Shown here piece after piece: positions 4,046 to 50,053 of a stretch of 54,917 nt of DNA (position 1 is its first letter; each line of letters starts with the position of its first letter). Origin of the DNA: Candidatus Undinarchaeales archaeon (GTDB taxonomy: Archaea; Undinarchaeota; Undinarchaeia; Undinarchaeales; JALTGF01); assembly GCA_046483005.1 (NCBI GenBank), contig JAWOEA010000008.1:1-54917 (forward strand), read 5' to 3'. The translations under genes and the position numbers were made by a program. Under the pieces are notes generated by a model that saw only the letters and a program-made list of their open reading frames with translations, had not been told where the DNA came from and did no database searches.

Positions 4046-5378
4046 AAATCTTTTTCTGTCCGTTTCTTAATAGATGTATATTATCCCCGAGCTTGTAATT
4101 TTCGCCGGTATTTTGATTATATTCTTCAGAAGCTAAATCAGCATAAGCAGCAAGTTTTTGGATGTCGCCGTGACAGGGAATTAAATTTTTAGGATTCAAC
4201 CTTTTAATTAAATCTCTGTGGTCTTCTCTGTCAGCATGTCCTGAAACATGAACATCTCTGAAAACTCTTCCACCCTGTGAAATTATGTTTTCTTCAAGTT
4301 TATGCCTGTTTTGTATGTTTATTGGAGTAGGAATTGTTCTGCATGAGAAAATAACCTGATCTTCTCTTTCTATTTTATAAGAATAATCTCCATTGACAAT
4401 TCTGGAAAGAATTGCTCTGGGCTCGCCCTGTCCTCCTGTAACTACAATTAAATGGTCCTGTTTATTTTTTGCAGCTTTTTTGAAAACCTTTTTCATTGCT
4501 TTTTGTCTTCCCATTACATCTAAATTAGGGAATTTTTTGATTCCAACAGCTTCTGCAACTTTGATATATTTTGCAAGAGACCGCCCGCAGAAAGAAACTT
4601 TCCTGTCCAGTTTTTTAGCTGCCTCCTGAATTGAATTTAATCTTTCAATATGAGATGAAAAACTTGTTACTAAAATTCCATTAGTATCATTAATAGTAGT
4701 TGTAAGTGTATCTTTAAGCATCTCTCTTGCAATCACTTCACCGGGGGTTTTATTGTATTCTTCTGAACCTACCGATTCAACAATTGCAACCTCAACTCCT
4801 TCTTTGCCAAGTTTCTTCATTCTTTTATAGTCAGGAGGTTTTGTGAGAGCCTGACTGTTGTCAAATTTGAAATCAGAAGCATAATAAACAATTCCTTCCG
4901 GTGTATGCAGAGCAGTATGAACTGTTTGGGGAGTTGAATGAGTTAAATGAACAAATTCAACTTCTGTTTTTCCTACATCTACTTTCTCTCCGGCTTCCAT
5001 AGTAACTGTATTAATTCTGTTGAATTTTTTATGAGGCATTGAATTTCTTAAAAATTCCATTGTAAATGGAGTTCCTATAACCGGGGCATCGTAGCGTTTT
5101 GCCATATATTCAACAGCTCCGCAGTGGTCTAAATGAGCGTGAGAAATTACAATTGCTTTAACATTGTCCTTCATTTTTTGAATTGGTTTATCGTCGGGAA
5201 GAACGCCTTCATTTGTTAAATTTGGTTCCTCTGGTTTCAGGCCTTTTTCCTCAAGAGCCATAAGAGGATCCAAATGAATGCCCATGTCAAGAAGAATTAT
5301 TTCATCATCTACCTTGACTGCAGTCATATTCTTTCCGACTTCTTCATATCCGCCTAGTGAGTAAATTTCTATTGTCAT
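4035..5378 (-). CDS. rnj: Archaeal RNase J (metallo-beta-lactamase / beta-CASP ribonuclease)
   Basis: MBL motif 'ISHAHLDHCGA', beta-CASP-type C-terminal motifs ('VHVSGHADRED', 'PCHGD'). The 447-aa length without KH domains fits aRNase J. Confidence 0.85.
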   Translation of the reverse strand: MTIEIYSLGGYEEVGKNMTAVKVDDEIILLDMGIHLDPLMALEEKGLKPEEPNLTNEGVLPDDKPIQKMKDNVKAIVISHAHLDHCGAVEYMAKRYDAPVIGTPFTMEFLRNSMPHKKFNRINTVTMEAGEKVDVGKTEVEFVHLTHSTPQTVHTALHTPEGIVYYASDFKFDNSQALTKPPDYKRMKKLGKEGVEVAIVESVGSEEYNKTPGEVIAREMLKDTLTTTINDTNGILVTSFSSHIERLNSIQEAAKKLDRKVSFCGRSLAKYIKVAEAVGIKKFPNLDVMGRQKAMKKVFKKAAKNKQDHLIVVTGGQGEPRAILSRIVNGDYSYKIEREDQVIFSCRTIPTPINIQNRHKLEENIISQGGRVFRDVHVSGHADREDHRDLIKRLNPKNLIPCHGDIQKLAAYADLASEEYNQNTGENYKLGDNIHLLRNGQKKIFNN

Positions 5379-5486
5379 TTTGTTTCGTTTCTGCGCGTAG
5401 CGCAGGTTTTTTGATCAAACTTTTTTTCGAAAAAAGTTTGTCCGGGTTCTTCATATCCGCCTAGTGAGTAAATTTCTATTGTCATT
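5340..5486 (-). repeat. Composite element E1: perfect 40-bp direct repeats (5340-5379, 5447-5486) flanking a 67-bp two-hairpin insert (5380-5446). Candidate micro mobile element / engineered leader
   Basis: Both copies read 'ttcttcatatccgcctagtgagtaaatttctattgtcatt' and cover position -1 to codon 13 of rnj. The insert has the GC hairpin ctgcgc-gta-gcgcag (5391-5405), the core TTTTGATCAAACTTTT (5409-5424) and the hairpin caaactttt...aaaagtttg (5416-5440). Confidence 0.9.
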
Positions 5487-6362: not shown

Positions 6363-6982
6363 TTTCTCTTTGATTCTGCCTGGAAGTCCTCTACTTTTAA
6401 AGTGAAATCAGAGTTGTCCTTTATTTCATCTCTTGCTTTCAGAACTTCTCTTGCAAGTATCCAGAATATTAGCGCCAGCGACTTCTTTCCTCTGTTATTT
6501 ACAGGAACAAGCAGATCAATATTTTGAGTCATATTGTTACTGTTTACCAGAGAAACAATTGGAATATTCATGTTAATTGCTTCCTTTACAGCCTGTTTAT
6601 CTGCTCCGGGGTCAACTACAAACAAAACTTCCGGCTCAATATGTTTTTCAAAAGCAGGATTCGTTAAAGAACCCGGCATGAATCTTTTAATTATTGCCTT
6701 TGCACCGATTGTTTCAGCAAACTTTCTTGCCGGTTTCTTTCCGACGTCTCGTCCTGAAACCACCATTATTTTTTCCGGTTTAAATCTTGCCAGAAACTTT
6801 GCAGCTGTTTCAAGTCGTTCATCAATTGCAGAAACATCTAGAACAGCCAGCCCGTCCGGTCTAGTCTTGTAAATAAACCGATCCATATCATCTAGTGCCC
6901 TTTGAGTTCCAATATGGATTCCGGTCGCCAGATACTTGTCCAGCGGAACTAATGTGTCTTTTTTAGTTGATTTTTTTGTCAT
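6359..6982 (-). CDS. rps2: 30S ribosomal protein S2 (uS2)
   Basis: 'LLATGIHIGTQ' type N-terminus, 207 aa. Start overlaps the eno stop (ATGA-type junction) in the conserved eno-rps2 order. Confidence 0.9.
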   Translation of the reverse strand: MTKKSTKKDTLVPLDKYLATGIHIGTQRALDDMDRFIYKTRPDGLAVLDVSAIDERLETAAKFLARFKPEKIMVVSGRDVGKKPARKFAETIGAKAIIKRFMPGSLTNPAFEKHIEPEVLFVVDPGADKQAVKEAINMNIPIVSLVNSNNMTQNIDLLVPVNNRGKKSLALIFWILAREVLKARDEIKDNSDFTLKVEDFQAESKRK

Positions 6983-18110: not shown

Positions 18111-18452
18111 TTAATTAAAATGCTTCTTTTTCAGCTTCTTAATGGTTCCTGAAACGCCTAAAGTAGTTACTGACGCCTTCTTTTTGTTGATTGAAGTTAT
18201 TGCCGTCAATGCCCCGAGGACTTCTGTTAGGGCTTTATTTGAACATCTGAGAATTCCCTTTTTCTTTTCTTTATTGTAATCAATGAGCCAGACATTCGTT
18301 TCAGAGGCGCCGGCTTCGCCGAAAAGCTGGAGAATTGAAGAAGTTATAGTATGTATAATGTTATTTTTTGAAGGTTTTGCTTCTGAAAATACAGAAAAGG
18401 CTATATACCTCCATGTTTCCTTCTGTGTTGCCCTGACTTTGAATTTTACCAT
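18111..18452 (-). CDS. rnp2: RNase P protein component 2 (Pop5)
   Basis: 'WRYIAFSV', 'GILRC', C-terminal 'GVSGTIKKLKKK' are Pop5-like. Adjacent to rpp30. Confidence 0.7.
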   Translation of the reverse strand: MVKFKVRATQKETWRYIAFSVFSEAKPSKNNIIHTITSSILQLFGEAGASETNVWLIDYNKEKKKGILRCSNKALTEVLGALTAITSINKKKASVTTLGVSGTIKKLKKKHFN

Positions 18453-18569
18453 TGTTATAGCATTGCATAGATTGGGCCGAAGGCCGCCTTTTGATCAAAC
18501 TTTTGCGCGAAGCGGAAAAGTTTGCGACACGTTTCCTTCTGTGTTGCCCTGACTTTGAATTTTACCATT
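18415..18569 (-). repeat. Composite element E2: perfect 39-bp direct repeats (18415-18453, 18531-18569) flanking a 77-bp two-hairpin insert (18454-18530). Same family as E1
   Basis: Both copies read 'gtttccttctgtgttgccctgactttgaattttaccatt' and cover position -1 to codon 13 of pop5. The insert has the GC hairpin ggcc-gaa-ggcc (18475-18485), the identical core TTTTGATCAAACTTTT (18489-18504) and the hairpin caaactttt...aaaagtttg (18496-18524). Confidence 0.9.
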
Positions 18570-18572
18570 TAA

Positions 18573-19244
18573 TTATATTTTTTTCACTCCTTTTCCAACT
18601 GACTTTCTGCCTTTCCTTTTTCTATTTCTTTCAACTATTTTTTTAGGCGTCTTTAAAACTGCTTTTTTAGCTTCATCCGGTTTGAACCCGATAGATTCTG
18701 CGAAAGCAACAAGCTGTTTTGGGCTCCTCATTCCATACATATCTGAAGCTCCGGAAGTAAATATTAAAGGAGTGTTGTATTTTCTTGCCATCCTCAAATC
18801 AAACTTTATTTTTGAAATTAAATTCGCTCTTTTCATTCCATATGTTGAAAGAATATCTTTTAAATTGATTTCAAGAGCTATATTATTATCAGCGCAGTCT
18901 CTCGCAGCACTTTGATCTACAAAAGCATGTGAAATTATATCTACTCCCTTCATTTCAGGAGCGGCCCGCATTGCCCGATCATCTCTTGAACTTACAAAAA
19001 CAATATCAACCTGGTTTCTGACTTTGTCCAGCTGAGTTTTTATCTTTCCTTTTGTTTTCTTTGTTATTTCAACTGCTGAGATTAAGTCTATATTTGAATA
19101 TTCTTTTTCAAACTTTTCTTTTGCTTTTTCATACCTGCTCTTATTAAAATTATTTTTAAAAACAATACCCAGTCCTTTAACTCCTAAATTAGCTAAACCA
19201 TTTAATTCTCCATTTAAGACTGCTGTATTATGTAAATCGTACAT
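18573..19244 (-). CDS. rnp3: RNase P protein component 3 (Rpp30)
   Basis: 223 aa, N-terminal 'MYDLH'. TIM-barrel-type pattern and superoperon position. Confidence 0.75.
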   Translation of the reverse strand: MYDLHNTAVLNGELNGLANLGVKGLGIVFKNNFNKSRYEKAKEKFEKEYSNIDLISAVEITKKTKGKIKTQLDKVRNQVDIVFVSSRDDRAMRAAPEMKGVDIISHAFVDQSAARDCADNNIALEINLKDILSTYGMKRANLISKIKFDLRMARKYNTPLIFTSGASDMYGMRSPKQLVAFAESIGFKPDEAKKAVLKTPKKIVERNRKRKGRKSVGKGVKKI

Positions 19245-49778: not shown

Positions 49779-49790
49779 TTTTAGTATAAG

Positions 49791-49863
49791 GGCCCGGGGC
49801 GGGAATTGAACTCGCCTCAAAAGCTCCACAGGCTTCCATCATAACCACTAGACCACCCGGGCC
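49791..49863 (-). tRNA. tRNA-His (GUG) with genome-encoded G-1
   Basis: RC is GGCCCGGGTGGTCTAGTGGTTATGATGGAAGCCTGTGGAGCTTTTGAGGCGAGTTCAATTCCCGCCCCGGGCC. It has a 7-bp acceptor stem plus a G-1:C73 pair, anticodon loop CTGTGGA and T-loop TTCAATT. Confidence 0.9.
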
Positions 49864-50053
49864 AAACTTTTTCTTTTCTGTACTTGCAACATAAGTATTG
49901 CTAGCTTTTAAATTTATAGAAAGAGGGCTAAAACAAATCTTTTCCTTACCTGTGAAGACACTCACTTGCTTTCATTTTAGCAGAATAAATGTATCTGTCC
50001 CACTATTTAAAAGTTTAGATAGGTATTTAATTCATAAAATTATACATAAAAAT

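Follow-up and report, generated by a model that had tools for sequence, protein, structure and literature searches.

A cross-phylum, mainly archaeal hairpin repeat family with a copy and a 42-bp duplication at the rpp30-pop5 junction of a Candidatus Undinarchaeales genome

The window analyzed in this study, a stretch of 54,917 nt from contig JAWOEA010000008.1 (assembly GCA_046483005.1) of a Candidatus Undinarchaeales archaeon, carries a small insert, designated E2, between the RNase P protein genes rpp30 and pop5. We found that E2 is a member of a structured, multi-copy hairpin repeat family that crosses phyla, and that its insertion site, a gene junction that was once tight, carries a 42-bp duplication. 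A sister copy, E1, is located at the start of the RNase J gene in the same window. We consider it moderately probable that E2 is one copy of a mobile hairpin, small, non-coding, and dependent on its structure, comparable to repetitive extragenic palindromic (REP) sequences, miniature inverted-repeat transposable elements (MITEs), and Rickettsia palindromic elements (RPEs), which was inserted with duplication of its target and whose host gene has kept its expression by means of a relay reading frame.

Both rpp30 and pop5 lie on the minus strand, and features are given as plus-strand positions in window coordinates (Table 1). By direct reading, all 39 bases of 18415-18453 (GTTTCCTTCTGTGTTGCCCTGACTTTGAATTTTACCATT) recur at 18531-18569, and a repeat search (pair D19) extended the match to 42 nt with a single mismatch (18412-18453 versus 18528-18569; 41 of 42 identical). 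The repeat spans exactly positions -1 to +38 of the pop5 start and reaches +41 with an ACA/ACG difference, in agreement with a preliminary description of this DNA, which had reported identical 39-mers running from the base before the ATG into codon 13, then a synonymous difference and two further matches. The repeat period is 116 nt, and an exact 39-nt repeat at that spacing is far beyond chance. On the sense strand, the rpp30 stop codon TAA (18575-18573) is followed by TTA and the upstream copy (A ATG ... GAA AC(G) TG), whose ATG begins 4 nt after the stop. Then come TCG, the core hairpin CAAACTTTT-CCGCTTCGCGC-AAAAGTTTG-ATCAAAA, GGC, a second hairpin GGCCttcGGCC, 21 nt of filler, and the downstream copy (A ATG ... 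GAA AC(A) TG), which runs on with G AGG ... into pop5. The filler has no second match in the window or in 120 loci of the family, and the left parts of the E1 and E2 inserts have no second copy anywhere in the sequence searched. The GC-rich mini-hairpin beside the core is probably part of the mobile unit. The organism is a DPANN-like archaeon with a G+C content of 37%, and the window contains 51 such mini-hairpins against approximately 22 expected; we rejected them as a separate abundant repeat of the window, as all but the E1/E2 pair resemble ordinary coding sequence.

Searches for proteins identical to Pop5 and RNase J of the window gave no match. Relatives were located by an Rpp30 homology search, which gave contigs L121, L122, and L123 (77% and 74% identity); the nearest named relatives belong to Undinarchaeales, at approximately 53% identity. 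In all three contigs, the operon runs as in the window: L15e, a small open reading frame (ORF), rpp30, pop5, and proteasome alpha. The insert is absent, and the pop5 ATG either overlaps the rpp30 stop or lies 1 nt from it. Alignment of the window with these contigs left a single gap of 116 columns, which corresponds to the insert plus one repeat copy. Because the genes of the relatives are adjacent or overlapping and the difference is a single 116-nt block, the ancestral junction was tight, and E2 is specific to the lineage of the window. On this comparison, E2 is a lineage-specific insertion and duplication at the rpp30-pop5 junction, and the insertion into an ancestral rpp30-pop5 pair that had been proposed earlier is borne out. 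The distal copy does lie 4 nt past the rpp30 stop, as first described; the idea that this four-nucleotide spacing was ancestral does not hold, since rpp30 and pop5 of the relatives are 1 nt apart or overlap, and the spacing is specific to the window genome.

That the duplication is an artefact of assembly is exceedingly improbable. There is no independent contig of the same species on record, and related contigs break or have N gaps at such repeats (the start of L126, the gap of L128, and the end of L136). However, a single read and ordinary k-mer lengths accommodate a repeat of 39-42 nt with 116-nt spacing, one base distinguishes the two copies, the spacer that they enclose is unique, and the same architecture was assembled independently in L129, L128, and L136.

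The assignment of E1 and E2 to one family, suggested in the preliminary description, is supported by several shared features. The window contains exactly two instances of the 16-mer TTTTGATCAAACTTTT (5409-5424 and 18489-18504), the 9-mer AAAAGTTTG lies downstream of both (5432-5440 and 18516-18524), and the order of parts and their orientation relative to the gene are the same. A covariance model identified only these two core copies in the 54.9-kb window, with a score of 37 bits (E = 6e-6) for E2, and the E2 core stem is predicted by folding on either strand. The GC hairpins described earlier, ggcc-gaa-ggcc in E2 and ctgcgcGTAgcgcag in E1, were found at their positions, and the apex of the long E2 hairpin carries the extra mini-hairpin GCGCGAAGCGG in the predicted fold.

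We scanned species-representative genomes, metagenomes, and viral contigs for the exact pattern TGATCAAACTTTT followed after 3-25 nt by AAAAGTTTG, for which we estimate approximately 2 chance matches under uniform base composition. Species-representative genomes gave at least 120 loci, and so did metagenomes; only 2 matches were found among 2.9 million viral contigs, and a viral origin of the element was rejected on this count. Among the titled genome matches examined (the first 80 listed), 63 were archaeal, and the other 17 belonged to Clostridia or Cloacimonadota, cultured isolates included. The archaeal hosts listed comprise Methanosarcinales, Methanobacteriota, Methanomicrobiales, Methanocellales, Methanophagales, Halobacteria, and Thermococcus, as well as Micrarchaeota, Woesearchaeota, Iainarchaeota, Altiarchaeota, Undinarchaeota, and Nanohaloarchaeota.

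The conserved unit consists of a single-stranded TTTTGAT tail and a hairpin of 9-13 bp, N-AAACTTTT ... AAAAGTTT-N', usually with a GC-rich mini-hairpin with a GNA loop ahead of it. Beyond the searched pattern, conservation is restricted to the T-run preceding GATC, and the TTTTGAT tail is nearly invariant; on these alignments, the tail is constrained at the sequence level. The closing pair of the core is CG in 90 sequences, AU in 4, GC in 2, and UA in 2, so that all four Watson-Crick types occur. Weaker model matches at the same loci show compensatory closing pairs (GAT-C...G, GAT-T...A, GAT-G...C, and GAT-A...T), and further compensatory changes were found deeper in the stem (CAAC/GTTG, CAAG/CTTG, and CAAAT/ATTTG). 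Two-sided changes affect 4 of the 9 stem pairs, and none of 500 shuffles attained the observed values. Since the stem covaries to this extent, the core hairpin represents a real structural constraint, and the view that structure is kept while sequence drifts has passed the covariation check. No Rfam family matched the window, both elements, or 19 loci at the gathering threshold, and relaxed searches gave only noise (E of approximately 0.7 or higher); the matches obtained on the same sequences were to tRNA and rRNA only. In the literature, neither concept searches nor searches with the exact sequence, as DNA and as RNA of either strand, found a description, and the element family is apparently undescribed.

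The counts of locations, duplications, and neighbors given below cover the loci listed from these genome and metagenome matches. The copies are mostly intergenic, and they show no preferred orientation relative to neighboring genes (23 in the same direction on plus, 26 in the same direction on minus, 22 convergent, and 12 divergent). A promoter or terminator was rejected in view of this lack of bias and of a hairpin without a following U-run on either strand. A few copies lie within protein-coding genes as in-frame inserts of 30 nt, between domains in PurL, inside the PDT domain of prephenate dehydratase, and in an Asn-synthase-like protein, with identical orientation and frame in the three loci (L005, L041, and L104).

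A strong enrichment of copies is seen precisely at the ends of structured genes (tRNAs): 27 of the 269 copies lie within 6 nt of a tRNA or in a tRNA intron. Eight copies have the GTTTG foot of the hairpin against the mature 5' end of the tRNA and nine have it against the 3' end (-3 to +6 nt); these junctions often overlap by 1-3 nt, with the TTTT side 1-74 nt away. The core also occurs in introns of Rfam-confirmed tRNAs in L006 and L023. The foot of the hairpin there coincides exactly with the 5' splice site, and the lower helix of a canonical bulge-helix-bulge (BHB) motif is supplied by the core arm in L023. Two further loci were noted by inspection. A tRNA-like locus at 6640-6830 (minus strand) of L068, called by neither ARAGORN nor Rfam, has by eye a non-canonical intron in the T-loop region, with two tandem cores split by a GC mini-hairpin. 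In the window, the mature 5' end of tRNA-His (49790-49862, minus strand) is directly preceded by AAAAAGTTTG at 49863-49880, which is the 3' arm of the family hairpin with no partner arm and may represent a decayed family copy.

An RNA route, in which the element would be a mobile BHB intron, or would come from a hairpin RNA that is joined to the ends of RNAs and then copied into DNA, with E2 spliced from the mRNA, would account for the copies in canonical 37/38 tRNA introns with the 5' splice site at the foot, for the textbook BHB of L023, for the junctions exactly at mature tRNA ends, and for the duplicated block of L206, which equals tRNA nucleotides 1-34. We nevertheless regard it as very improbable. 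The folded sense transcripts of E1 and E2 show no BHB, and the self-complementary central helix in the repeat, with matching outer helices, that would be needed to restore the native mRNA is absent on checking by hand. In addition, no CCA has been added to the duplicated tRNA 3' ends of L004 and L080, the inner edges of duplications do not fall consistently in loops, the copies occur in both orientations and also in bacteria without the archaeal splicing endonuclease, and no reverse transcriptase is linked to them. A BHB intron (3-nt bulges around a 4-bp helix at both boundaries) was rejected for E1 and E2 on the folds and the unfit geometry; the family member in L023 does have the motif. Duplications set by RNA fragments (tRNA halves or tRNA-derived fragments; L206, L004, and L080) were rejected on the position of the edges and the missing CCA.

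Significant flank duplications accompany 25 of 129 and 14 of 126 copies (11-19%), and approximately 80-90% of the copies have none. Those present are 13 nt at the shortest and more than 48 nt at the longest. Their right copy begins 0-12 nt past GTTTG, and filler of 0-109 nt lies between the left copy and the core. Among the sequences duplicated are tRNA 3' ends (L004, L018, L080, L091, and L120), tRNA 5' ends (L112 and L206), a gene 3' end (L069), gene starts (E1, E2, and L136), and intergenic sequence. These results do not support the earlier proposal that the element is targeted by position to translation or transcript starts, as most copies have no duplication, the duplicated blocks are of several kinds, and the -1 boundary is not general: the L136 block begins at the Shine-Dalgarno sequence, and the RNase J block of L128 takes in at least 26 nt upstream of the ATG. 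Copies that are numerous but mostly free of start duplications are also the outcome that the preliminary description had itself named as refuting its proposal. What stands of the positional idea is the enrichment at tRNA termini and the end of exact identity at -1 in three cases (E1, E2, and L112); weak similarity past that position, seen by eye in all three, suggests that the original duplications may have been longer.

The core and its flank also form tandem arrays (L030, L077, L016, L038, L136, and L128). The arrays in L030 (3915-4285), L077, L016, and L038 are perfect, with a period of 55-120 nt, and look like repeat-spacer arrays with identical spacers; such arrays could be miscalled as CRISPR. 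L069 (1-340) has two tandem units, in each of which the terminal 36 nt and the stop codon of a SecE-like gene are combined with a spacer and a core; the stem of the second core differs but is compensated, CGTCGAAC gaa GTTCGACG, and stands behind the same TTTGATCAAAC. In L198 (5040-5130) and L222, a host inverted repeat carries the element in its loop, the flanks being mutually reverse-complementary, an arrangement that suggests insertion into hairpin loops.

The variability of the duplications bears on the insertion process. One possibility, which we hold to be rather unlikely, involves no dedicated transposase: the hairpin would be copied by template switching during replication or repair, a nascent strand departing from its template, copying a hairpin unit at another place, being expelled at the foot, and re-annealing through 1-3 nt of microhomology, and landing behind the departure point would give a duplication. 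This accords with duplications ranging from none to more than 48 nt, with the tandem arrays, with the 1-3 nt overlap between foot and tRNA termini, with mismatches that cluster in the first bases, at the core-proximal end, of the duplicated copy (E1, E2, L004, and L206), with unique filler and small palindromes at junctions, and with a family present in very small DPANN-type genomes and lacking a copy-linked protein. However, it leaves unexplained why the same tail and stem sequence is found from Methanosarcina to Micrarchaeota to Clostridia, and why the ends are sharply defined on both sides within a genome.

Alternatively, a Y1 (HUH) enzyme of the IS200/IS605 type or similar to the REP-associated tyrosine transposase (RAYT) might mobilize single-stranded DNA in trans, with the tail guiding cleavage and the duplications arising as by-products of fork repair. 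The hairpin with its conserved 5' single-stranded tail, the covarying stem, the lack of inverted terminal repeats, and the many copies without target duplication all agree with such an enzyme, as does the placement of some copies in host hairpin loops (L198 and L222) and at the tRNA anticodon-loop position. Taxa rich in IS200/IS605 elements overlap the host range of the family. A subfamily of 51-70 nt from metagenomes (L146, L147, L156, L163, L184, L190, L197, L207, L221, and L228) is bordered in its long form by TTAC (left) and GTTAC (right), two motifs that occur together in 13 of 14 copies, and TTAC is the known target of IS608. Against this enzyme, there is a single conserved hairpin rather than a left-end/right-end pair, target duplications are not a product of this chemistry, whereas E2 has one of 42 bp, and copies on the same contig have no consistent strand. 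In addition, tblastn with IS608/IS200 TnpA queries, a weak test, found no Y1 transposase in 1.6 Mb around the copies. We therefore consider this alternative improbable.

The sister copy E1 was compared with RNase J loci obtained by homology search (L126-L130; Table 1). The GC hairpin of L128 (CCTGCGC..GCGCAGG) is the same as that of the window, and L126 shares its sample of origin with L123, a contig with an empty pop5 site. From their distribution among these loci, the RNase J duplication is old and common to relatives. The core and the start duplication are separable at RNase J, since the spacers of L129 and L128, where readable, have no AT-rich core; this too speaks against the targeting of starts. 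The repeat copies are identical or nearly so within each genome and differ synonymously between genomes, which points to concerted evolution or repeated re-duplication. In L128 (9449-10037), four tandem copies consist of the promoter-proximal region of the RNase J gene and its first 13 codons, each opening a 60-codon frame that ends in ATGA on the next copy, and a scaffold gap of 100 N lies exactly where the core lies in the window.

These loci are also the ground for considering host regulatory leaders, in which a structured 5' leader and upstream frame would tune RNase J and Pop5, or a plus-strand small RNA would have a tail antisense to the gene start. A duplicated RNase J start with a hairpin-rich spacer and a frame ending in ATGA persists in several lineages, the core is conserved between the window and L126 (orthologous E1 copies), whereas the filler has diverged, and both host genes encode ribonucleases. 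This explanation is nonetheless decidedly improbable: the core was found hundreds of times by unrelated genes, in both orientations and inside ORFs and tRNA introns, E2 is missing from three relatives with the same operon, L127 (RNase J 82%) has no E1 arrangement, no Rfam family matches, and no archaeal TATA-like promoter is evident by eye in the insert on either strand. The ribonuclease hosts, whose meaning was left open in the preliminary description, look coincidental, as the neighbors of 240 loci show no functional theme.

The duplication at gene starts is associated with a recurrent reading frame. In E2, the frame opened by the upstream ATG ends in TAA-CA-ATG, and in E1 a 36-codon upstream frame ends with a TGA overlapping the real RNase J ATG (ATGA). 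The same ATGA overlap is found at RNase J in L126, L128, and L129 despite different spacers, and the repeat periods there (107 in the window, 182 in L128, and 119 in L129) are all 2 mod 3; the period of L126 is unmeasurable, as the contig starts inside the core. The L136 block comprises a Shine-Dalgarno sequence, an ATG, and 7 codons, and its upstream frame has a TGA 4 nt before the next ATG. In every gene-start case, the frame from the upstream ATG traverses the insert and stops at the real ATG or within 5 nt of it; shuffled inserts gave a stop this close in 8-14% of trials per locus (8-13% for E2). Since this stop at the start recurs across independent loci and lineages, selection may filter for or maintain the relay, and the arrangement suggests a relay by termination and reinitiation.

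Table 1. Coordinates of E2, E1, and associated features. Positions are those of the window unless a locus is named.
Feature	Position	Strand	Basis or remark
rpp30, RNase P protein component 3, upstream gene, intact	18573..19244	-	PF01876
pop5, 113-aa RNase_P_Rpp14/Pop5 ORF	18111-18452	-	orthologues in L121-L123 carry PF01900
Upstream (distal) copy of pop5 start, -1 to +41	18528..18569	-	adjoins rpp30 stop as in empty sites of relatives; keeps native junction
ATG of upstream copy	18568-18566	-	opens relay reading frame
Upstream frame, 37 codons plus TAA, MVKFKVRATQKETCRKLFRFAQKFDQKAAFGPIYAML	18455..18568	-	translation; stops 2 nt before real pop5 ATG
Downstream (proximal) copy, real pop5 start, ATG 18452-18450	18412..18453	-	runs on into pop5 ORF
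Inserted DNA, 74 nt (77 nt if counted to 18530)	18454..18527	+	absent from relatives
Family core, TTTTGAT tail and hairpin CAAACTTTT / AAAAGTTTG	18489..18524	+	exact 16-mer and 9-mer common with E1
GC-rich mini-hairpin GCGCGAAGCGG nested in apex of core hairpin	18505..18515	+	fold prediction
GC mini-hairpin ggccGAAggcc, GNA triloop, 3 nt upstream of core	18475..18485	+	fold; direct reading
Filler between proximal repeat and GC mini-hairpin	18454..18474	+	sense strand gives TAA 18457-18455 ending relay frame
E1	5340..5486	-	40-nt exact repeats 5340-5379 and 5447-5486 (pair D12); 67-nt insert 5380-5446
E1 core	5409-5440		shared 16-mer and 9-mer, covariance model
E1 GC mini-hairpin ctgcgcGTAgcgcag	5391-5405		
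RNase J, 57% identical to window	L130		single start, TATA box ~27 nt upstream (leaderless type)
RNase J, 66%	L129		duplicated start (37 nt, 4-5 differences), 83-nt hairpin-rich spacer without AT core
RNase J, 72%	L128		four tandem copies, 182-nt period, scaffold gap after third
RNase J, 82%	L127		empty site, no E1 arrangement
RNase J, 85%	L126		contig begins inside core just upstream of ATG
Core in PurL	L005 1245-3575		10 in-frame codons, QTFKKSLIKN/T or QTFHKSLIKN
Core in prephenate dehydratase	L041 4048-4947		as above
Core in Asn-synthase-like protein	L104 3810-4646		as above

Taken together, the hairpin unit and approximately 20 nt of filler entered the rpp30-pop5 junction, where the two genes were tightly coupled, in the ancestor of this archaeon, and the event duplicated 42 bp of the target, pop5 -1 to +41, as the empty-site comparison shows. 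The pop5 gene is intact downstream because the duplicated block contains the start codon, and the upstream copy would retain the native junction and coupling to rpp30. Ribosomes leaving rpp30, or initiating at the upstream ATG, might then translate the 37-codon frame through the element, terminate at the TAA 2 nt before the real ATG, and reinitiate, which would preserve expression of the essential pop5 gene. E2 is probably tolerated thanks to this short upstream frame, which hands ribosomes to the real start. The insertion process appears to join the hairpin foot (the GTTTG end) precisely to the target and to be imprecise on the other side, leaving filler and variable duplications. Two models fit the exact junction at the foot, the untidy one opposite, the varying duplications, the mismatches close to junctions, and the lack of a linked enzyme: a trans-acting enzyme on the single-stranded hairpin followed by host repair, or replication template switching. 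The former is favored by how strictly the tail and the two ends of the unit are conserved, and the latter by the occurrence of the family in minimal genomes. A two-step origin, with a tandem duplication and a later insertion, is also possible, since a plain 42-nt duplication already creates ...TGA ATG.

Several observations weigh against a mobile hairpin kept in place by a relay. The window has two core copies in 55 kb, and none was found in approximately 80 kb of the loci of the relatives, so that there is little sign of recent activity of the element in this lineage. No protein family other than housekeeping ones recurs within 3 kb of the 269 copies by all-against-all clustering of ORFs, and a linked transposase was rejected after such clustering around 120 and then 240 loci; the lack of a Y1 match given above, with its limits, belongs here as well. 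Inverted repeats are absent from the termini of the E1 and E2 inserts, as well as from those of the 51-nt subfamily, and target duplications ranging from absent to more than 48 nt match no characterized transposase. The core is near-identical across phyla, and this, together with its conservation between E1 orthologues, could reflect a host function instead. The start duplication without a core in L129 and in two units of L128, where readable, indicates that the duplication may come from a step separate from core insertion. As for the relay, a plain tandem duplication of pop5 -1 to +41 already yields ...ACG TGA ATG, and translation of the upstream frame with reinitiation is inferred from the sequence.

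More tentatively, the family may be a transposase-free selfish hairpin that spreads foot-first across Archaea and some anaerobic bacteria by means of the replication, repair, or RNA-processing machinery, with start duplications evolving into relay frames. Such a hairpin would enter DNA that is structured or exposed, for instance the ends of tRNA genes, the 37/38 intron position, the loops of hairpins, and the boundaries of genes.

Small repeats of the REP, RPE, or MITE kind are known; what appears new is the cross-phylum and mainly archaeal range, the junctions between foot and tRNA ends, and the long variable duplications with relay frames. With bacterial REP sequences, their paired form (REP doublets forming hairpins, REPINs), and RAYT (Y1) enzymes, the family shares a short imperfect palindrome, a conserved single-stranded motif at the 5' foot, a covarying stem, and many dispersed, non-coding copies without terminal inverted repeats that are sometimes clustered or arrayed. 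However, it is mainly archaeal and AT-rich rather than GC-rich, no RAYT-like gene was found near its copies, and it includes a subset with long flank duplications, which REPs do not show; REPs are strictly extragenic and of high copy number, whereas this family enters PurL, prephenate dehydratase, and tRNA introns and has only 2 copies in the 55-kb window. RPEs are likewise palindromic in-frame inserts in protein and RNA genes, tolerated as an extra peptide (here QTFKKSLIKN in PurL and prephenate dehydratase), but they measure 100-150 bp and are confined to Rickettsia, whereas the present core has 30-60 nt and crosses phyla and domains, and E2 lies outside the Pop5 frame, in a separate upstream reading frame.

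MITEs (Correia/NEMIS and archaeal SM elements) are likewise small, non-autonomous, and inserted with target duplications, and they can change how neighboring genes are expressed; unlike the present family, with duplications of 0 to more than 48 bp, they have terminal inverted repeats and a fixed short duplication made by a DDE transposase. IS200/IS605 elements and their miniature derivatives, palindrome-associated transposable elements, are similar in hairpin recognition, probable single-stranded substrates, possible insertion at a fixed tetranucleotide (TTAC, in one subfamily), and overlapping hosts. They have two subterminal hairpins and never duplicate their target, whereas here one hairpin is conserved, the second (GC) hairpin varies in sequence between copies, and E2 has a 42-bp duplication without a TTAC-type motif. 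Casposons and CRISPR Cas1 resemble the family in target duplications of tens of bp, casposons duplicating 3' ends of tRNA and protein genes and leaving the gene intact, and the core and flank arrays superficially resemble repeat-spacer arrays; Cas1 duplications, however, are fixed (14-15 bp in casposons, repeat length in CRISPR), whereas here they are variable, no cas1 is linked, and the same hairpin is always involved. The GC clusters, 'byp', and double-hairpin elements of fungal mitochondria are tiny hairpins in AT-rich genomes with landings in coding regions, short direct repeats, and translational neutralization. They differ in genome and sequence, and they are neutralized by ribosome hopping, whereas termination-reinitiation is the simplest mode here. 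Retroelements without long terminal repeats and those akin to short interspersed elements, which insert by target-primed reverse transcription, have one precise end and variable duplications, and the polarity and variable duplications of the present element fit this pattern. Copies within a genome have defined ends on both sides, and no reverse transcriptase was seen linked to the copies.

The extent of the unit varies within the family. A dispersed unit of approximately 51 nt, TTCCTYAGTGTTTCTTTTGATCAAACTTTTCTTTTTAAAAGAAAAGTTTGG, has 27 copies with unrelated flanks, and two copies in the metagenome-assembled genome (MAG) JBDRKL01 share exactly the GC mini-hairpin and the core and nothing beyond. 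A larger composite recurs in methanogen-type MAGs (L015, L031, L032, L035, L074, L077, and L110). Additionally, in Clostridia (L001, L008, L050, and L113) the core lies within a larger repeat of at least 150 nt, in which an extra upstream AAAAGTTT arm permits alternative hairpins and a GC hairpin lies downstream, with no Rfam match. GC mini-hairpins also fill the core loop in L014, L024, and L100. Mini-hairpins of the GCGAAGC type (GNA triloop) sit both upstream of the core and in the apical loop, and the GC mini-hairpins may be a separate small insertion module or a product of palindrome-extending mutation.

If the family is as widespread as the scans suggest, it represents an unannotated repeat class in archaeal genomes. 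The element breaks assemblies (L126, L128, and L136 end or have a gap there), confuses start-codon calling by an upstream ATG that mimics a gene start, inflates tRNA introns, and adds peptide segments to enzymes. The most notable results are the family itself and its precise tie to tRNA termini and introns, which raise the mechanistic question of what joins a 30-nt hairpin so exactly to tRNA termini in some of the smallest known genomes. The conserved core would be a handy probe for DNA exchange among methanogens, DPANN archaea, and anaerobic Firmicutes. Finally, loci such as E2 provide a natural experiment in which essential, translationally coupled operons would survive insertion through target duplication and a relay frame.

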